Source: an uncultured Acidobacteriaceae bacterium (GTDB lineage: Bacteria > Acidobacteriota > Terriglobia > Terriglobales > Acidobacteriaceae). Taken from it: DNA of 64,000 bases. Positions 3,162-57,901 of the stretch are shown in pieces. The stretch spans positions 62,454 through 126,453 of the forward strand of contig CAVTVC010000009.1 in the NCBI GenBank assembly GCA_963738085.1. The letters run 5' to 3'. The notes below the pieces were generated by a model. That model worked only from the letters and a program-made list of their open reading frames with translations, was not told where the DNA came from and ran no database searches. A program made the position numbers and the translations under genes. The first letter of the stretch is position 1. Every line of letters begins with the position of its first letter.

Positions 3162-4655
3162 ATGACGTATGTACTTTCGCTCGACCAGGGGACGACGAGC
3201 TCGCGCGCGATTCTTTTTGATCATGATGGCAAGATTGCGGGAACGGCCGCGCATGAGTTTCCGCAGATCTATCCGAATAGTGGATGGGTAGAGCATGATC
3301 CGTTTGAGATCCTCACGTCGCAGTTGAGCTCTGCCGTCGAGGTGATGGGCAAGACGGGAACGCGTCCTCGAGATGTTGTGGCACTGGGGATTACCAACCA
3401 GCGAGAGACGACGATCGTGTGGGATCGCGAGACGGGCAGGCCTATCTATAACGCGATCGTGTGGCAGGACAGCCGGACTGCCGCGTTTATGAAGCGCCTG
3501 TTCGATGAGGGTGCGGAGGAGATGGTTCGGCAGAAGACGGGACTGCTGCTGAGTCCGTATTTTTCTGCCAGCAAGATTGCGTGGATACTCGACAACGTGA
3601 ACGGAGCGCGGGCGCGTGCGGAGGCCGGCAAACTTGCATTTGGCACGGTCGATAGCTGGCTGGTGTGGAACCTGACGAGCGGGCGGCGGCATATTACGGA
3701 TCGCACGAACGTGTCTCGTACGCTGCTTTACAACGTTGTTGAGGACAAGTGGGACGAGGACCTTTTGAAGCTGTTCAAGGTTCCGATGAGTATGCTGCCC
3801 GAGGTTGTGTGGTCGAGCGAACGGGTGGGGCAGGTGACGACGACGCTGGGATTGGGCGAAGTTGAGATTTCGGGGATTGCGGGGGACCAGCAGTCGGCGC
3901 TGTTTGGGCAACTGTGCGTGTCTCCGGGCGATGCGAAAAATACTTATGGGACGGGTTGTTTCCTGCTGCAGCATATTGGCGACCGGTTCACGCTGTCGGA
4001 GGAGCGGCTGATCACGACACTTGCATGCAGCGTGGAAAATAAGGCTGCTTATGCGCTTGAGGGCAGCGTCTTTGTTGGCGGAGCGGTGGTGCAGTGGCTG
4101 AGAGATAACATGAAGTTTTTCCGTAGATCGTCTGAGGTTGAGGGGATTGCGGATTCTGTGCCGGATTCCGGGGGGGTAGTCTTTGTGCCTGCGTTCACCG
4201 GTCTCGGGGCCCCGTACTGGGATGCGCAGGCCAGAGGGTTGATTATTGGCCTTGAGCGCGGGACTCAGATTGGGCATATTGCGCGCGCAGCGGTTGAGAG
4301 CATTGCATTTCAGGTTGCGGATGTTTTGCGTGCGATGGATAAGAGTTCAAAGAGTCCGTTGACGGAGCTTCGTGTGGATGGAGGGGCTGCGGCGAATGAT
4401 GCGCTGATGCAGTTTCAGGCTGACCTGCTTGGCGTGCCGGTGCATCGGCCTGCGGTTCTGGAGACGACGGCGCTGGGAGCCGCTTATCTCGCGGGGCTTG
4501 CTACAGGGTTCTGGAGTAGTGTGGACGAGTTGAAGAAGCATCGTGCCGCGGACATCGTCTTTTCTCCAAAGGCAGACAAGAAGCAGATGGAGCGGTTGCA
4601 GGGAAACTGGCAAGAGGCTGTCGCGCGCTCCCGCGGATGGAGCAAGGAGAGCTGA
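3162..4655 (+). CDS. glpK: Glycerol kinase
   Basis: LDQGTTSSRA, GITNQRETT, YFSASK, GDQQSALFG, KNTYGTG and VDGG motifs; 497 aa. Confidence 0.97.
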   Translation: MTYVLSLDQGTTSSRAILFDHDGKIAGTAAHEFPQIYPNSGWVEHDPFEILTSQLSSAVEVMGKTGTRPRDVVALGITNQRETTIVWDRETGRPIYNAIVWQDSRTAAFMKRLFDEGAEEMVRQKTGLLLSPYFSASKIAWILDNVNGARARAEAGKLAFGTVDSWLVWNLTSGRRHITDRTNVSRTLLYNVVEDKWDEDLLKLFKVPMSMLPEVVWSSERVGQVTTTLGLGEVEISGIAGDQQSALFGQLCVSPGDAKNTYGTGCFLLQHIGDRFTLSEERLITTLACSVENKAAYALEGSVFVGGAVVQWLRDNMKFFRRSSEVEGIADSVPDSGGVVFVPAFTGLGAPYWDAQARGLIIGLERGTQIGHIARAAVESIAFQVADVLRAMDKSSKSPLTELRVDGGAAANDALMQFQADLLGVPVHRPAVLETTALGAAYLAGLATGFWSSVDELKKHRAADIVFSPKADKKQMERLQGNWQEAVARSRGWSKES

Positions 4656-19277: not shown

Positions 19278-19940
19278 TTATGGTGCGTTGACGACGACGT
19301 ATGTGGTGTTGCTGCCTGACATTTGAGGCTGGTACCAGGTGCCGTTGCAGTTCTGGTAGGCCAGTCCATTGACGATTTGCGTTGCGCAGCCAGCGGGCGG
19401 CTGGTTGACGATCGAACCGATGACAGCAGCGGTTACCATCGCCGTGGCTGTGACCGCAGCTGCAGCTGCAACGGGATGGTAGCAGCAGCCGCCGCCGCCA
19501 TAGTAGCCGCCGCCACCGTAGCCGCCATTGACGTTCACGTTCACGTCGCGGTTAACGTTGACGTTGTTGTTGACGTTGGTGTTTCTATTCACGTTCTGAT
19601 TTACGTTGGTGTTTCTATTTGCGTTCTGATTTACGTTGGCGTTGCCGTTGCGATTGGCACCCTGATTGGCGTTGGCGCCGCGATTGGCGCCTTGGTTGCC
19701 GTTGGCGCGATTGGCACCCTGGTTGCCACCGCGATTGCCGCCCTGGGCAGGAGTCGAGTTGACGCTGGTTCGAGCGCTGCTGCGGGTACCGCCGCCTGCT
19801 GCGCCGCCGCCGCCACCGCGAGATGCGGCCCCACCACCACCACCACCGCCGCGGCCGCCGCCGCGTTGGGCGAAGAGGGTCATTCCGGATATCAGGATTG
19901 CGATGGCGAATAGGGCGAAGATCTGAGTTGATCGCTTCAT
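19278..19940 (-). CDS. Secreted Gly/Asn-rich low-complexity repeat protein with Cys-containing C-terminal domain
   Basis: Signal peptide MKRSTQIFALFAIAILISGMTLFAQ, NQGANR and NVNxN repeats, then CCYHP, a hydrophobic helix and C..YQNC..WYQP. Confidence 0.8.
   Translation of the reverse strand: MKRSTQIFALFAIAILISGMTLFAQRGGGRGGGGGGGAASRGGGGGAAGGGTRSSARTSVNSTPAQGGNRGGNQGANRANGNQGANRGANANQGANRNGNANVNQNANRNTNVNQNVNRNTNVNNNVNVNRDVNVNVNGGYGGGGYYGGGGCCYHPVAAAAAVTATAMVTAAVIGSIVNQPPAGCATQIVNGLAYQNCNGTWYQPQMSGSNTTYVVVNAP
19581..19745. repeat. Intragenic ~27-30 bp tandem repeats encoding the NVNQNxNRNT and NQGANR units
   Basis: Two near-identical 30-mers at 19581-19640, followed by several CGATTGGCRCC-containing units. 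Confidence 0.85.
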
Positions 19941-26162: not shown

Positions 26163-26216
26163 GGTGATTCAATGGTAGTGCAACGGGTGCGGAGTGCGGT
26201 CGTGCATCGCACGATG

Positions 26217-26273
26217 CCCACATCTCAGAATCGAGATATGCGCACCCAGCGCCCGGCGAAGATGGGGCACCCG
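26217..26273 (+). repeat. REP-like palindrome (family 1) plus partial second unit
   Basis: CCCACATCTCAGAATCGAGATATGCGCACCC followed by GAAGATGGGGCACCCG. Confidence 0.85.
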
Positions 26274-26282
26274 ATTCCGCGG

Positions 26283-44350: not shown

Positions 44351-44395
44351 CGCGAATTCCCACTCATGCGATGAGACTGCATGAATGGGGCACCC
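44351..44395 (+). repeat. REP-like palindrome, family 1 variant
   Basis: CGCGAATT-CCCACTCATGC...GCATGAATGGG-GCACCC: same flanks as family 1 with a different stem. Confidence 0.75.
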
Positions 44396-44518
44396 ATGGT
44401 CTCGGCTACATTTCATGTGCGGGCCACGCAGCCATGATGAATCAGGAATCGGGGGTGTGCTATGCTGTGTCGCATCCAGCAGCCCAAAATCGGAATCCTC
44501 GTTAAGAAGGAATCAGCC

Positions 44519-45853: not shown

Positions 45854-46041
45854 ACACTCTCCTTTGGTTTTCTGTAATTTTTTTAGGGCGCTGATTTTCT
45901 AGCTGATGAGGATGCTGCTGGGAGCTTTCGGTTCATATCTGATGCGCTGCTCGTATGGGTGGATGCGTCAGTTTGAGGGAGACAAGCTATTGGATAAGAA
46001 ATGCGGAGATCGTAGGGAGGAGAAAGCGGTTCGCCGCTTTG

Positions 46042-46118
46042 CGCGAAGACCCACATCTGAGAATCGAGATATGGGACACCCGACTTCTGTGGCTCAATTT
46101 AGATATGGGCCACCCGGC
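46042..46118 (+). repeat. Long REP doublet (family 1)
   Basis: Full hairpin plus TGTGGCTCAATTTAGATATGGGCCACCCG tail. Near-identical direct repeat of 48124-48202. Confidence 0.88.
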
Positions 46119-47627: not shown

Positions 47628-48091
47628 TTAGGATTTCATAATCAGGAATGGGGATGGTTCGTTCAGGAGATAGTGGCGATAGGTGGACAAAGGCCAGTCT
47701 TCCGTGTTTTTGACGAGGCCGCGGGTGACTGGGGTTGCGGTGCATGTACTCCAGCTTTTCGACGCGCTGTTGTGGGTGAAGACATTGAAGTCGTAGTAGC
47801 GGGGTTGCCAGAAAGGGCGTTCGGCGAGGCGTCTGGAGGCGGAGATTTTCAGAGCCTGTAGAGCTTTTGAGAGAGGGGCTTCGGGAGGTTCGCTCATGAG
47901 GATGTGCACGTGCTCTGGCATGACGACGTAGCCGAGGATTTCGAATTGATAATGGCTTCGTGTGCGTTCGAGAGAGTCGAGGAAGATGTCTCTTGAGTTT
48001 GCGTGTTGAGGTAAGGTTTGCGGTTGTGACAACTAAAGGTGATGAAATGATCGTCGCCTTCTTAGTGGTATCGCTTGAGCCCAAACGGCAT
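47628..48091 (-). mobile_element. REP-associated tyrosine (Y1 HUH) transposase RAYT, inactivated (TAA at codon 10 plus about three frameshifts)
   Basis: MPFGLKRYH*...HFITFSCH, YVVMPEHVHIL (HUH), FWQPRYYD, KLEYMHRNP (catalytic Tyr) and W.LSTY; adjacent REP palindromes. Confidence 0.88.
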
Positions 48092-48123
48092 GGGTTGATT
48101 TTAGAGCATCGGGTTCGCGCGTG

Positions 48124-48202
48124 GCGCGAATGCCCACATCTCAGAATCGAGATGTGGGGCACCCAGTTTTTGTGGCTTCAATTTAGATGTGGGCCACCCG
48201 CC
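48124..48202 (+). repeat. Long REP doublet (family 1) directly upstream of RAYT
   Basis: Perfect stem CCCACATCTC-AGAATC-GAGATGTGGG (48133-48158), GCACCC and the shared tail. Confidence 0.9.
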
Positions 48203-48670
48203 CTAGTTCTTGACGGTCATCGCGTCGGAGTCCACGGCTTTCTTGCCGGTGATGCCTTCCAGAGCCATGAGAATTCCGCGGTAGTCGTTCTTATCGCACT
48301 GCATGACGAAACCGCCCTTCTGATCGCCATTGGCATAGGTGATGCCAATGAAGTGTTTCTTGGACTTGCTCAAGGCCATGAGGGCCCCAATTCCGAAGGA
48401 GACTACGGCAAGCCCGATGGCGGCACCGACCCGCCGGTGGACATCCTGTCCGTAAGAAATCTCGGTAATTGCGGAAGCGGGAACGGTGACTAGATCCTTC
48501 TTGTTTTTAGCCAAGCGCACCTGCGTCTGTTCGATTGCAAACTCGGCGGAAGAGCCGGATTTGACGGATTGAATCGATCCGCCGTCGTAGGCGACCTTGT
48601 AGCTGTTATCCGCCGCAAAGGCGACCGTGGGAACTAATAGGCAGAGAATTGCTGCAATAAAACTTTTCAA
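48203..48670 (-). CDS. Secreted/membrane hypothetical protein
   Basis: TTG start with AAGGA RBS, signal peptide, internal Gly-rich hydrophobic hairpin. Confidence 0.72.
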   Translation of the reverse strand: MKSFIAAILCLLVPTVAFAADNSYKVAYDGGSIQSVKSGSSAEFAIEQTQVRLAKNKKDLVTVPASAITEISYGQDVHRRVGAAIGLAVVSFGIGALMALSKSKKHFIGITYANGDQKGGFVMQCDKNDYRGILMALEGITGKKAVDSDAMTVKN

Positions 48671-48736
48671 TTTAAATCCTTTGTAGTGGAATGTCAGAAT
48701 TATGCTGCTATCGCGCATCTAGCAATCCAAGACTCC

Positions 48737-48776
48737 GCGCGAATGCCCACATCTCAAAATCGAGATATGGTGCACC
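48737..48776 (+). repeat. REP-like palindrome (family 1)
   Basis: GCGCGAATGCCCACATCTCAAAATCGAGATATGGTGCACC. Confidence 0.85.
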
Positions 48777-48957
48777 TGATTCTGTGGGCTCGGATACCGA
48801 AGTAGGACTTCGGGGAATCCATTCTCTAATTCTAAGAAGTAATAAACTTTTCGTCATTGCGTCAAAGCAATCTAACTCAGGCCACAGACGCGTTTGAAGC
48901 CCCTAGACGAGAGATGGCCAGATTTTTAGTGTGCGATTGCAGGAGCATTTTTGATCT

Positions 48958-56047: not shown

Positions 56048-57901
56048 TTATGGGCGGGTTTTACGTAACGCAAAGACGGAGAGGAGTGCGAGGGAGATTA
56101 CGGAGATGAAGTCGCCGAGGGTTTGGTCGAGGGTTTGCATGTAAGTGATGTTGATTTTGTAGTCCGCGGCGTAGATGGGAAGAGCGACGAGACCGTCATC
56201 ACGGTGAATATGTCTTGGGTGGTCGAGGCTCAGGCTGTTGGAGTCTGTGCTTGTGATGTCCCAGGATGGGTAGTCGCGCAGGTTAAGTATGAGATACCCC
56301 GGTTGGGCCGCTTTGAAGGAGAAGTGGGTGGGTGCGGGACCGGGCCGCGCGTTGATTGGGGCTTTTCCGTTGGGATCCGATGAGATCCAATACGAAGGGT
56401 TCGTTTGGGCGAGGGAGTCGTTATCGGCGGTTGTGGGGGTGTATTCGTCGGTGGGGTCGGTGCCTTGATTGGAGTGGAAGACGGCGAGGCGGGCTTGCAC
56501 GGTGTCACTGGGGTCGCAGGTTTGATGGAAGACGGTATAGGCCGGGTAGATCAAAGCTGCGACTATGACTGCCGCGAAGGCAGCTGTTGAGAGGGGGGTG
56601 AGTTGGATCGGTTTGAGGACGAGGGCCAGCGTTAGTGCGAAGACTGCGGCGAGGATCGCGAGGAGACGCCAGGGGAATTGGAGGAAGGCTAGTTCGGGGG
56701 CGTGGTTCCAGATGAAAGCAGTTAAGGGGGTGAGTAGGAGAGCGATCGCGATAGTTAGAACAGCGAGGGCATAGAGGAGTGGACGCTTGGGGGAAGCGGT
56801 CGCGCTTTCGCTCGAGGCCCACGTTAGGCGCAGAAGATGCGTCGAAGATGGGGCCCCCGAGTTTGTGGATGGAGTGCTCTTGTTTGTGGCTGCCAGATAA
56901 GTTAGCGCTAGAGCGGTTAGGGTGATCAGGGCGATGGCGATGAGTGAGGCGGTGTGGAGGACCTGGTCGTGGGCGGCGTCGTCGGTGTGGTGGAAGAGGA
57001 AGTTGTCATGGATGCGGTAGAAGGGGATGATCGCCATGGCGATCTGAACGAAGCGGCGTTCGTAGGCGGCGGGGAGGATGTAGAAGGCAGCCAAGGTGAG
57101 GCCGAGGATGGTTCCCGCTGCTGCGTTGATGGCTAGTTGGAGCGGTGTCTGGGATTGGGGGGGGCTGGTATTGGAATGGGTTTGAGCGTTCGCGCTTTCG
57201 CGCGATACCCACATCTCAGAATCGAGATATGGGGCACCCGGATTTGTTGCGCTTCGGTTATTCGAAGCCACAGGGATGAATCGGCTTGAAGAGTTGGTGG
57301 CCAGCCGAATGACGGTTAAGAGGGCGAGGGCGTAGCAGCTCATGACGGCGGCGGGGGCGTTGGTGAGCCAGAGGAGTGCGACGGGGATGGCGATGCGGGG
57401 GATGGTGATTTTGCTGCTCAGGATGGCGTGGAGGAGGAGCGGGATGAAGGCAGCGGCGAGGAGTTCGGCGTAGGCTGTGCGCTCGTAGGCGGTGAAGAGC
57501 ATGTACGGGTTGACTGTGTATACGATTGCGGCGATGAGTGCGGCTTTGGAATTGGTGAAATCGCGGGCGAGATAGTTGAGACTGAGGCCGGCCGCGGAGA
57601 GGGCCAGCCATGTGTAGAGGATCGGAGTCCACTGCCAAGGAAATATGAGGCCGAGGATGGCTCCGATGGTCCAGGAGAGCGGCGGGTAGAAGACGAAGCG
57701 GGGTTCTCCGGCGTTGTATGCGGGAGAGAAGGCCCAGTGCGGGTGGAGATTGCCGTGAGTGAATTGGCGTGCGGCTTCCATCCAGTTGAGGAGGTGGAAG
57801 TCGAAGTCGTGGCCGCAGGAGCAGCCGTTGATGAGAAGTGGCAGGATGGCGACGAGCGCGGCTAAGGGGATGAGGATGTATGATAGCCGATCGCGGTGCA
57901 T
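56048..57901 (-). CDS. Polytopic membrane protein, PTPS-related/GT-C-like family
   Basis: GHDFDFH, GEPRFVFYPP, YTVNPY...ERTAYAE and LQFPWR; two low-complexity loops containing REP sequence. Confidence 0.78.
   Translation of the reverse strand: MHRDRLSYILIPLAALVAILPLLINGCSCGHDFDFHLLNWMEAARQFTHGNLHPHWAFSPAYNAGEPRFVFYPPLSWTIGAILGLIFPWQWTPILYTWLALSAAGLSLNYLARDFTNSKAALIAAIVYTVNPYMLFTAYERTAYAELLAAAFIPLLLHAILSSKITIPRIAIPVALLWLTNAPAAVMSCYALALLTVIRLATNSSSRFIPVASNNRSATNPGAPYLDSEMWVSRESANAQTHSNTSPPQSQTPLQLAINAAAGTILGLTLAAFYILPAAYERRFVQIAMAIIPFYRIHDNFLFHHTDDAAHDQVLHTASLIAIALITLTALALTYLAATNKSTPSTNSGAPSSTHLLRLTWASSESATASPKRPLLYALAVLTIAIALLLTPLTAFIWNHAPELAFLQFPWRLLAILAAVFALTLALVLKPIQLTPLSTAAFAAVIVAALIYPAYTVFHQTCDPSDTVQARLAVFHSNQGTDPTDEYTPTTADNDSLAQTNPSYWISSDPNGKAPINARPGPAPTHFSFKAAQPGYLILNLRDYPSWDITSTDSNSLSLDHPRHIHRDDGLVALPIYAADYKINITYMQTLDQTLGDFISVISLALLSVFALRKTRP
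56805..56860 (+). repeat. Diverged intragenic REP (family 1 variant), in frame
   Basis: GCTTTCGCTCGAGGCCCAC...GAAGATGGGGCCCCCG; encodes GAPSSTHLLRLTWASSES. Confidence 0.6.
57199..57240 (+). repeat. Intragenic REP (family 1), in frame
   Basis: GCGCGATACCCACATCTCAGAATCGAGATATGGGGCACCCG; encodes PGAPYLDSEMWVSR. Confidence 0.9.

Follow-up and report, generated by a model that had tools for sequence, protein, structure and literature searches.

Two members of a REP superfamily lie within the coding sequence of one membrane-protein gene in the 64-kb window (the whole stretch of Acidobacteriaceae DNA analysed here), and both are in frame. As a whole, the data are best explained, with a probability that we put at about 80%, by in-frame insertion of REPs into two loops of the protein, mobilisation of the repeats in trans by a RAYT (REP-associated tyrosine transposase), selection that keeps permissive sites, and turnover of the loops. 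Earlier examples of in-frame REP insertion are the Rickettsia palindromic elements (RPEs) and intragenic GTAG/CGTC REPs; what is new here is the group of hosts, the superfamily of elements, and that the same two loops have been colonised again and again.

Two REPs in the reading frame of a GT-C-like protein gene

The earlier note on this DNA had described two REP palindromes inserted in frame in one membrane-protein gene. This was confirmed: the frame of the single ORF is kept through both repeats, and the peptides quoted are exact (Table 1). The full copy reported at 57199-57240 is present and perfect; the element is, however, wider (about 57186-57252). The repeat at 56805-56860 is in frame as well, but its reading as a diverged type A copy was rejected. 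It is an eroded member of a distinct sister family, type B, which is dispersed in its own right and to whose consensus the in-gene copy is 89.8% identical over 59 nt. The two inserts lie in different loops, which contradicts the idea of one site tolerating two insertions.

Table 1. Positions in the window of the host gene, its inserts and the related extragenic elements
Feature	Positions	Strand	Remarks
Host gene, GT-C-like polytopic membrane protein, PF10131-related	56048..57901	-	single intact ORF of 617 aa
Type A REP, in frame	57186..57252	-	aa 217-239 (..ATNPGAPYLDSEMWVSRESANA); identical to the window core (0 mismatches) and alignable with the extragenic copies
Hairpin 1 of type A	57208..57234	-	10-11 bp stem, loop GAUUCU; one G.U on the mRNA strand (A.C opposite)
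Hairpin 2 of type A	57190..57205	-	6-bp stem TCGCGC/GCGCGA, GAAA loop
Extra 16-aa unit upstream of type A	57248..57295	-	NSSSRFIPVASNNRSA; bounded by direct repeat GCCACMAAYYC; holds small palindrome GTGGCTTCG..CGAAGC
Type B REP, eroded, in frame	56795..56866	-	aa 346-369 (TNSGAPSSTHLLRLTWASSESATA); both ends common with type A, middle differs
RAYT pseudogene	47628..48091	-	PF01797 E 9.7e-10; NF047646 74 bits, under the cut-off of 80
Extragenic REP doublet (GTGG-tagged partner + type A unit)	48118..48200	-	adjoins the RAYT pseudogene on its 5' side; fold -44.9 kcal/mol, z -5.1
Extragenic REP doublet	46035..46116	-	between SDR gene and TetR gene
Extragenic type A copy	48731..48790	-	between ORF 48203-48718 and ffh
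Extragenic composite copy	26207..26275	-	downstream of isochorismatase gene

On the mRNA strand, type A reads GCAACAAATCC-GGGTG-(CCCCATATCTC GATTCT GAGATGTGGG)-TA-(TCGCGC GAAA GCGCGA)-ACGC, with the tag GGGTGC, and folds into two hairpins (-30.9 kcal/mol, z -4.27). The hairpins of the in-gene type B copy are weakened (mRNA-strand z -1.29). Each insert contributes about 22-25 disordered residues, rich in Ser, Thr, Pro and Ala. The extra unit upstream of type A is missing in short-form orthologues (for example L006, L007 and L019) and is probably the remnant of another unit.

The host protein carries a conserved GHDFDFH motif directly after TM1 and ends in a beta domain followed by the last TM helix. 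Residues H31, D32, D34 and H36, right behind TM1, are invariant across 121 sequences; they are candidates for the acidic catalytic motif that GT-C enzymes have in the first extracytoplasmic loop. The match to PF10131 is weak (21.6 bits, under the cut-off of 26.4); several orthologues pass, and many are listed with this family. A Foldseek search of the PDB with the AlphaFold2 model (pTM 0.71) gave GT-C enzymes as all of the best 32 matches (AglB, AftD, ArnT, STT3, PglB, PMT, ALG9/12), at a probability of about 1.0 for the top 20 but with TM-scores of only 0.3-0.44. The protein thus models as a polytopic GT-C fold, as had been proposed, and the inserts are placed between hydrophobic helices, in low-confidence coil (pLDDT <50 at residues 210-245 and 355-369). 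Both insert loops are predicted to be disordered and, by the positive-inside rule and the helix count from both ends of the model, are probably cytoplasmic. An exposure of the loops at the envelope, as once suggested, is therefore unlikely.

The same two loops are filled by many repeat families

In distant orthologues both loops are short and rich in Lys and Arg, with 10-17 aa for loop 1 against 58 aa in the window protein, and 20-30 aa for the loop 2 segment against 55 aa. These short loops represent the ancestral state, from which the longer ones arose by insertion. The earlier note had asked whether palindrome-free orthologues have conserved loops of the same length, which would speak against insertion; since their loops are much shorter, this objection falls away. 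Empty loops are also found in close orthologues (loop 1: P0033, P0037, P0061, P0063; loop 2: P0006, P0013, P0032, P0061, P0063).

Across about 120 closer orthologues, at least nine repeat families occupy these two loops, some in tandem or nested, and they occur nowhere else in the protein. Counts of repeat-derived motifs in 121 proteins (PGAP 91+30, VPHP 24, VISTE 9, SSRP 21) fall entirely within the two loops, with 0 elsewhere. The families are scattered across the orthologue tree, and 75 of the 80 genomic orthologues are single intact full-length ORFs (three are frameshifted and two lie at a contig end). The differing families in the same two loops of related species indicate that, in this group, intact genes regularly gain peptide sequence from such repeats. 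The earlier note, which had described one protein, understated the extent of this.

Types A, B, D, H and I (superfamily 1) have common ends (..ATNPGAP and SRxSATAPAH) and an identical position in loop 1; types A and I are distinguished by compensatory changes in the stem. Types E and G (superfamily 2, GTCATYTCGACCG...GTGGAGARACC) show no sequence likeness to superfamily 1, yet lie in the same loops. Loss is recorded as well: in L020 a type F copy is missing exactly 33 nt between its two GGGTG repeats.

The common ends and the shared position, together with L005, which differs from type A by paired stem changes only, would suit a single ancient insertion per loop whose variety arose in place by decay, compensatory substitution and gene conversion from end-sharing genomic copies. 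Such homogenisation also predicts in-gene copies that are more alike across orthologues than synonymous sites, and the identity of the 65-nt in-gene element among orthologues is 0.90, compared with 0.84 for the flanking coding DNA and 0.745 for flanking third positions. We nevertheless consider this origin unlikely, given the unrelated superfamily 2 in the same loops, the tandem and nested copies, the empty sites within the insert-rich clade and the sporadic single inserts on otherwise empty deep branches (L051, L057, L027, L028, L023). Gene conversion between end-sharing copies, rather than new insertion, could still account for part of the family diversity of the loops.

The repeats are dispersed in Acidobacteriaceae genomes and enter other genes

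Within the window, the 26-nt core CCCACATCTCAGAATCGAGATATGGG has five matches at up to two mismatches, against 0 expected from shuffles. All are on the + strand (starts 26217, 46050, 48133, 48746 and 57208); four of the five are intergenic, and the one inside the host gene has no mismatch. In public genomes, the exact 32-nt type A core was found in more than 118 stretches of Acidobacteriaceae DNA, and type B in 46 stretches. At the position of hairpin 2, a hairpin of at least 5 bp is present in 86 of 137 type A copies, compared with 12.9 in shuffles, with 22 different stems and compensatory changes. Three features characterise the superfamily: the 5' tag GGGTG(C/G), a hairpin 1 that varies, and a hairpin 2 that is small and covaries.

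Further coding insertions of the same element, which the earlier note had proposed to count, are present in many genes. In a DNA census of exact cores, from which all counts of coding copies derive, an ORF with at least 80 codons on each side spans 39 of the 137 type A cores, about 18 of these with GC3 >=0.70, and 98 have no such ORF. About 13% of exact type A copies are in frame within real genes, among them those for MnmG, TsaD, RsmB, DNA ligase and GluRS. Pfam domains were found in nine of ten spanning genes tested, and in six of these the insert lies between or within domains (MnmG twice, ATP-dependent DNA ligase, TsaD, RsmB and a class-V aminotransferase). A protein database search with a 50-aa tandem of the insert peptide returned no candidates. 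Literature searches found no paper with the peptide YLDSEMW and none connecting Acidobacteriaceae with REPs.

No Rfam family reached its gathering score in the window, with chance-level matches only near the inserts, so the element does not correspond to a described RNA family. The GTAG and CGTC tags are absent from the stem foot; GGGTGC (GTGC) is found there in type A and GGGTGG (GTGG, which fits GT[AG]G) in the doublet partners.

Association with RAYT genes and orientation of the repeats

Two frameshifts and a TAA that follows codon 9 in frame disrupt the window RAYT; a three-frame reading recovers the HVH motif in frame and the YMHRNP tyrosine motif out of frame. The arrangement of a doublet before the RAYT recurs at intact 154-aa RAYT genes of other genomes, one of which is flanked by type A on both sides (L101) while another has two copies upstream (L137). 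The intact protein carries the HVHLL and YMHRNP motifs. In several genomes, intact RAYTs have type A copies immediately on their 5' side, and on their 3' side as well, at conserved spacing.

The tag strand is the locally C-rich strand in 135 of 137 type A and 42 of 50 type B copies. This rule is independent of gene direction, and the orientation of the elements switches in blocks along the chromosomes. A nearly fixed orientation relative to a very strong strand composition skew fits replication-coupled transposition of single strands. A CACAAA-like 5' flank is enriched (41 of 137 copies against a background of 2.8%); as empty and filled orthologous loops are too diverged for nucleotide-level alignment of their boundaries, the target signal consists of this flank enrichment.

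For the proposal that the repeat is RAYT-mobilised, the association itself stood, with the pseudogene beside its doublet and intact genes flanked by type A elsewhere; the evidence is one of association, and the window RAYT is dead. We infer mobilisation by RAYT from this genomic association. Alternatively, the repeats could be real and in frame but moved by another transposase in trans, by template switching at hairpins or by recombination. The missing GTAG/CGTC tag (tag definitions in PMC3733652 and PMC6006769) and the dead window RAYT would agree with this, as would the several families, superfamily 2 included, that have no identified transposase. This alternative appears doubtful to us in view of the RAYT genes that type A adjoins on both sides, of a protein that passes the NCBIfam model for REP-associated tyrosine transposases (NF047646, 110.7 bits against a cut-off of 80), and of the near-absolute strand orientation, which is a prediction of single-strand, fork-coupled HUH transposition (PMC6006769).

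Conservation of the in-gene copies

An element more conserved than flanking third positions is unexpected for a purely neutral passenger, unless the insertions are recent or homogenised. In-gene copies might be retained as nucleic-acid elements, with a role of mRNA or DNA structure in pausing, stability, supercoiling or recombination and the peptide as a by-product. This would suit the identity of the 65-nt element despite the hypervariable protein sequence of the loop, the intact type A hairpins and the G.U pairing that falls on the mRNA strand. However, the type B copy that shares the gene has eroded, in many orthologues neither loop holds an element, and families replace one another. Elements also lie antisense in genes of the other strand, so that the mRNA of these genes bears the A.C strand. 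Retention for such a role is in our view rather improbable, and the inserted peptides are probably neutral passengers.

Assembly and probable translation of the inserts

A contig from a separate metagenome run crosses the type B insert (56753-57081, one difference), and at type A the left junction is bridged by independent metagenome contigs (57053-57228 with no difference, and 56927-57237). In these short, mixed contigs no insertion event or presence/absence polymorphism was seen, and the right junction of type A is uncrossed. Transcription is supported by a metatranscriptome contig at 56800-56979, in the host gene and over the type B insert. Metagenome contig depth is 1500-2200 at type A and about 5-100 over the remaining gene, a 100-200-fold spike at the core that speaks for its status as a repeat. 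A separate public contig of 310 kb encodes a 99%-identical protein, and complete isolate chromosomes carry in-gene inserts too (Tunturiibacter L012 and L013, Granulicella sp. S190 L001).

Misassembly of repeats into the gene, a pseudogene or three genes split by extragenic REPs would be conceivable for a metagenome-type assembly in which repeats are hazards and the depth at the core is very high, but is rejected as highly improbable, since independent runs cross the junctions, the second contig and the isolate chromosomes agree, and more than 100 orthologues stay in frame through inserts of many lengths, with conserved residues and the GT-C fold extending over the entire ORF.

From the conservation of the ORF we infer that the insert peptides are translated. 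A peptide across an insert junction, in the host protein or in MnmG/TsaD, would for example contain GAPYLDSEMWASR.

Proposed mechanism

In the RAYT-based explanation that we prefer, a RAYT-type HUH tyrosine transposase would move the elements in trans, with single-stranded DNA at the replication fork as its substrate, and their orientation to the replication strand would be set in this way. A fixed orientation would leave sense copies in the host gene two readable frames (GAP... and VPH...), since the third has a TGA. Selection would purge insertions that break the frame or strike structured parts of a protein, and the survivors would sit in permissive cytoplasmic loops and interdomain linkers. 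Further insertions may be attracted by existing copies or by A-rich Lys/Asn codons of the loops that resemble the conserved 5' flank CACAAA. Hairpins would also be lost by deletion between short GGGTG repeats. Under gain, selection and loss combined, one family after another would come and go in these two loops in related species.

A bolder, tentative version, which we hold to be unlikely as it stands, sees the RAYT-driven superfamily as a targeted, strand-specific generator of loop sequence. It would prefer A-rich CACAAA-like motifs, which in C-rich coding strands occur chiefly as Lys/Asn/Thr codons in cytoplasmic loops and in linkers between domains; insertions would then return to the same sites of essential proteins, and the copies would be kept or homogenised as DNA or RNA elements.

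So far, in-frame palindromic insertion has mostly passed for a curiosity of Rickettsia and a handful of other genomes. In the present case it is common among free-living soil bacteria that are themselves abundant, and essential genes of Acidobacteriaceae are affected. Hundreds of orthologues can be followed through empty, filled, tandem and nested states and deletion footprints. They offer a natural series for studying the origin and remodelling of protein loops through selfish repeats, the determinants of target and orientation, and whether coding copies stay active as DNA or RNA elements. In practice, the repeats lengthen loops, mislead alignments and domain calls, and cause short-read assemblies of Acidobacteriaceae genomes to break.

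Comparison with known systems

The elements resemble the REP/REPIN and RAYT (TnpA-REP) systems of E. coli and Pseudomonas in their short imperfect palindromes, a conserved 5' tag beside the stem and G.T stem pairs. Also shared are many dispersed copies, often doublets and mostly between genes of the same direction, and a RAYT gene flanked by its own repeats. REPs are defined by a GTAG (GT[AG]G) or CGTC tetranucleotide at the stem foot (PMC3733652, PMC6006769), whereas the tag here is GGGTG(C/G), that is GTGC or GTGG. Unlike in REP/REPIN, the unit has two hairpins of which the second covaries freely, sister families are alike at their ends and differ in hairpin 1, about 13% of exact copies are coding, and orientation is almost fully tied to strand composition.

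With IS200/IS605 elements (IS608, ISDra2) they would have in common an HUH/Y1 enzyme related to RAYT, subterminal hairpins recognised on one strand (PMC6006769) and an orientation bias from fork-coupled insertion (PMC6006769). In contrast to IS200/IS605, they carry no transposase, and the target signal observed is an enriched CACAAA-like 5' flank rather than a defined tetranucleotide. Intragenic MITEs (ERIC, Nezha, Correia) are likewise small non-autonomous repeats that are occasionally translated as part of a protein (PMC10969869); the terminal inverted repeats and target-site duplications that MITEs owe to DDE transposases were not seen in the elements described here.

GTAG/CGTC REPs have been described within coding regions of known proteins (Opitutus terrae, Thauera and others; Di Nocera et al. 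2013, PMC3733652). As here, they occur singly or as dimers, sometimes twice per ORF, and add 20-30 residues (PMC3733652). Many of their hosts are genes of DNA or RNA metabolism (PMC3733652), to which DNA ligase, MnmG, TsaD, RsmB and GluRS correspond in our set. Tag and host phylum differ, and on our reading PMC3733652 contains no report of one orthologous loop filled repeatedly by many families, or of the strand rule.

RPEs sit in frame in unrelated, functional and often essential genes, at positions that the fold accommodates (PMC10969869, PMC3733652), and in-frame insertion into functional genes at structurally permissive sites was found here too. RPEs are about 100-150 bp long, AT-rich and without a known transposase, and reside in the reduced genomes of obligate intracellular bacteria. 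As size, base composition and host differ, the likeness to RPE-1 to RPE-10 is one of behaviour only. The elements of Acidobacteriaceae are about 40-75 bp long, GC-rich and RAYT-associated, belong to free-living bacteria of the soil whose genomes measure about 4-6.6 Mb, and strike the same two loops with many families.

Two loops of a GT-C-like protein carry repeat-derived inserts

The host gene is a single unbroken ORF of 617 codons, and its protein has thousands of homologues. We compared it with 120 homologues of 61-99% identity from Edaphobacter, Tunturiibacter and Granulicella, and with a second set of 75 genomic orthologues from GTDB species representatives. The sequences aligned well, with many invariant residues, outside two segments: segment 1 (query aa ~199-256, loop 1) ranges from 13 to 80 residues among homologues and segment 2 (query aa ~330-384, loop 2) from 27 to 87. 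In distant orthologues (45-55% identity) both loops are short and Arg/Lys-rich (RIVQERRASL and RLAQTPAGRRLKL for loop 1, ARKKINLS and FLQKKKNNRHVLL for loop 2). Close relatives with empty sites were found for loop 1 (homologues P0033, P0037, P0061, P0063) and loop 2 (P0006, P0013, P0032, P0061, P0063). Palindrome-free orthologues therefore have short or empty loops instead of conserved loops of equal length, in agreement with the earlier note's claim that REPs had been inserted in frame at both sites.

An approximate motif classification of the 120 homologues assigned the loop 1 inserts to type A in 70 (plus 4 tandem or nested), B in 12, C in 9, E in 9, D in 5 and I in 3, with none recognised in 7. 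Loop 2 held type G in 32, F in 27, B in 14, A in 6, H in 4, I in 4 and composites in 11, with none recognised in 21. Another small unit, PGSPTSAFARWGGE, is nested within other copies. Repeat-derived motifs were confined to the two loops, with 0 elsewhere in the 121 proteins scanned. A neighbour-joining tree of the orthologues, built with the loops left out, showed mostly short loops with sporadic single insertions on the deep branches, and a mosaic of insert types and empty sites in the clade of the window. Insert losses are also visible as deletion footprints: loop 2 in L020 (about 3990-4040), a stretch of a related genome, keeps the type F flanks (..NARV/EQSS..) with exactly 33 nt gone between the GGGTG repeats bracketing the hairpin, and loop 1 of P0061 reads TNPGAP/TQT.

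An AlphaFold2 model from the 121-sequence alignment (pTM 0.71) placed residues 204-252 as coil between helices 182-203 and 253-280, and residues 340-371 as coil between helices 309-339 and 372-390, with pLDDT <50 at 210-245 and 355-369. The best 32 Foldseek PDB matches were all GT-C enzymes (AglB, AftD, ArnT, STT3, AftA, PglB, PMT, ALG9/12) at modest TM-scores of 0.3-0.44, which bears out the GT-C-like identity proposed from the sequence. Both insert loops appear cytoplasmic, and conserved segment 281-308, which separates them, periplasmic. Three points suggest this: short ancestral loops with a strong positive charge, positively charged ends of the protein (MHRDR at the N-terminus, LRKTRP at the C-terminus), and helix counts that agree from either end.

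Repeat families and hairpins

A search with the 26-nt type A core CCCACATCTCAGAATCGAGATATGGG revealed 5 matches in the window at ≤2 mismatches versus 0 in shuffles. The copy inside the host gene has 0 mismatches and folds into two hairpins (-30.9 kcal/mol, z -4.27). The other four are intergenic, the usual location of REPs, and their neighbours (isochorismatase, SDR, TetR, ffh and two unnamed ORFs) all lie on the minus strand. Lone tag fragments with no recognisable hairpin may be remnants of decayed copies. A repeat scan also gave a direct repeat family, D3, in which GCC/GCCGCC and TAG/TAC abound and which probably codes for a repetitive segment rich in Gly and Tyr on the minus strand.

The peptides that the earlier note quoted for both inserts are exact. 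Its reading of the second site as a diverged copy of the same element is rejected: the site shares both ends with type A, but the middle differs, and it is 89.8% identical over 59 nt to the consensus of another family, type B. Public Acidobacteriaceae genomes hold 46 stretches with a strict type B pattern, several in one genome, and type B is therefore an independent dispersed repeat. The second copy is an eroded member of this sister family, with 1 mismatch in hairpin 2 and an mRNA-strand fold z of only -1.29.

The DNA of orthologous loops revealed a superfamily 1, in which every member starts with (AGCCACAAATC)CGGGTGCCCCAT and most end with the small hairpin TCGCGC GAAA GCGCGA followed by CCGCTCCCGCCCAT. 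Hairpin 1 distinguishes the members (types A, B, C, D, F, H, I); between A and I the loop is identical and the stem changes are compensatory. The unrelated superfamily 2 (GTCATYTCGACCG...GTGGAGARACC; types E, G) gives the peptides VISTEA..AVEKP / SSRPERSEVERPPHF from two frames.

Scanning the exact 32-nt type A core (GGGTGCCCCATATCTCGATTCTGAGATRTGGG) against one genome per species gave at least 137 copies in at least 118 stretches, nearly all from Acidobacteriaceae. Hairpin 1 contains a G.U pair as read on the tag strand, A.C as read on the opposite one. Hairpin 2 was present in 86 of the 137 copies among the matches listed, versus 12.9 in shuffles (maximum 21), with 22 different stems (e.g. 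TCGCGC/GCGCGA, TCGTGC/GCACGA, TCGTCC/GGACGA, TCGGGC/GCCCGA); what is conserved is pairing rather than sequence. In 41/137 copies among the matches listed, versus 2.8% of control windows, a CACAAA-like motif precedes the core within 16 nt on its 5' side and may be either the end of the element or its target; at the corresponding place, empty loop 2 sequences of close orthologues are A-rich (ACC CAA AAC; AAA AAA).

Eight orthologues carrying type A in loop 1 were compared: mean identity is 0.90 over the 65-nt element, and the flanking coding DNA reaches 0.84 and third positions 0.745. Any of three processes would explain this excess: insertion that is recent or repeated, gene conversion that homogenises the copies, or selection acting on the hairpins.

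Coding copies in other genes

Among the matches listed, 39 of the 137 core copies lie inside an ORF extending at least 80 codons on each side, and about 18 of these 39 ORFs show GC3 as high as that of real genes. Pfam domains were detected in 9 of 10 tested ORFs and flank or enclose the insert in six (MnmG in two genomes, DNA ligase, TsaD, RsmB, class-V aminotransferase). This DNA census of the core covers the other coding insertions that the earlier note proposed to count. The interdomain site of MnmG, an essential gene, is filled in three different genomes, a further case of either recurrent or ancient occupation. Among the matches listed, the element is read in each of its five stop-free frames; the sixth, which contains TGA, was never seen among them.

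Coordinates of the host gene, repeats, RAYT features and coding copies (L-numbers, stretches of related genomes)
Feature	Location	Strand	Details
Host gene	56048..57901	-	GT-C-like membrane protein
Type A REP, loop 1	57252 down to 57186	mRNA strand	GCAACAAATCC-GGGTG-CCCCATATCTC-GATTCT-GAGATGTGGG-TA-TCGCGC-GAAA-GCGCGA-ACGC
Type B REP, loop 2	~56795-56866		
Type A core starts	26217, 46050, 48133, 48746, 57208 (host gene)	+	Core search, ≤2 mismatches
Lone tag fragments	44386-44396 and 62847		GGGGCACCC and GGTGCCCC
D3 repeats	19489-19863		
Y1_Tnp ORF	47628..48032	-	PF01797, E 9.7e-10
RAYT pseudogene	47628-48091	-	Start 48091
REP doublet	48118-48200		Directly 5' of RAYT pseudogene
Superfamily 2, loop 1	L002, L004, L010, L011, L016, L034		
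Superfamily 2, loop 2	L007, L010, L015, L041		
MnmG (GidA)	L085:2542-4854, L103:4807-6918, L157:6224-7999		Type A core at one shared interdomain site, antisense frame ..HISESRYGAP..
ATP-dependent DNA ligase	L120:489-2837		Two in-frame type A cores, Pfam domains both sides
TsaD	L182:3308-4555		In-frame type A core, Pfam domains both sides
RsmB	L198:5146-6615		In-frame type A core, Pfam domains both sides
Class-V aminotransferase	L081:1333-2616		In-frame type A core, Pfam domains both sides
Glu/Gln-tRNA synthetase	L162:6620-7999		In-frame type A core

Association with a RAYT transposase

The Y1_Tnp ORF of the window scored 74 bits with the NCBIfam REP-associated tyrosine transposase model (cut-off 80). 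Three-frame reading revealed a TAA after codon 9, two frameshifts and a YMHRNP tyrosine motif out of frame; the RAYT gene is a pseudogene. Its junction with the adjoining REP doublet (..GCGCGAACCCGATACCCTAAAATCACCC-ATGCCGCTCGGCCT..) is also present in other genomes. Intact RAYT genes of 154-155 aa with HVHLL and YMHRNP motifs were found in L101, flanked by type A copies on both sides, and in L137, with two copies upstream and a protein score of 110.7 bits in the NCBIfam model. The earlier note's link to a RAYT thus holds as a genomic association, which suggests that a RAYT may mobilise these repeats.

Orientation follows the DNA strand

The strand asymmetry of the window is unusually strong: the plus strand has a GC skew, (G-C)/(G+C), of about +0.29 in every 8-kb block (range 0.23-0.35), despite Pfam-confirmed genes on both strands. 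Third-position skew is as large as about ±0.7 in related genomes, where its sign depends on the DNA strand, independent of gene direction. The locally C-rich strand carries GGGTGCCCC in 135 of the 137 type A copies among the matches listed and in 42/50 type B copies. Genes carrying the element in sense have a C-rich sense strand (skew -0.28 to -0.45) and antisense carriers a G-rich one (+0.20 to +0.36); the rule therefore tracks the DNA strand, not transcription. Orientation switches blockwise along OZ255715.1, OY969625.1 and contig CBDIDK010000002.1. Such a rule is what single-strand, fork-coupled transposition by an HUH transposase (mechanism reviewed in PMC6006769) would predict, and it also accounts for superfamily 1 copies in the host gene being always sense, in frames GAP... 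or VPH... only.

Metagenome support

Separate metagenome runs gave contigs that span 56753-57081 (1 difference), 57053-57228 (0 differences) and 56927-57237. Word depth in soil metagenome contigs is 1500-2200 over 57164-57287 versus roughly 5-100 across the rest of the gene, and many contigs end at 57207/57208 and 57239-57247; the REP core is very abundant in these soil communities, and short-read assemblies break up at it. In a leaf-litter metatranscriptome, a contig spans 56800-56979, joining the type B insert to the next helix, with DNA carry-over possible.

Comparison with known systems

The finding is real and its original interpretation essentially right. Two features merit follow-up: many families have repeatedly colonised the two permissive loops, and the strand rule is near-absolute in genomes with extreme composition skew. 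A literature search retrieved no description of the host group, the element superfamily or the repeated use of the same loops. The RAYT gene with adjoining repeats matches the REPtron arrangement that defines RAYT systems, whereas another defining feature differs: the stem foot, GTAG or CGTC in those systems, is here GTGC, or GTGG in partner units. Intragenic location is shared with REPs of the GTAG/CGTC families in Opitutus terrae, Thauera and others (PMC3733652) and with the Rickettsia RPEs (PMC10969869). The phenomenon is therefore already known, and the loops described here are a rich new example of it.
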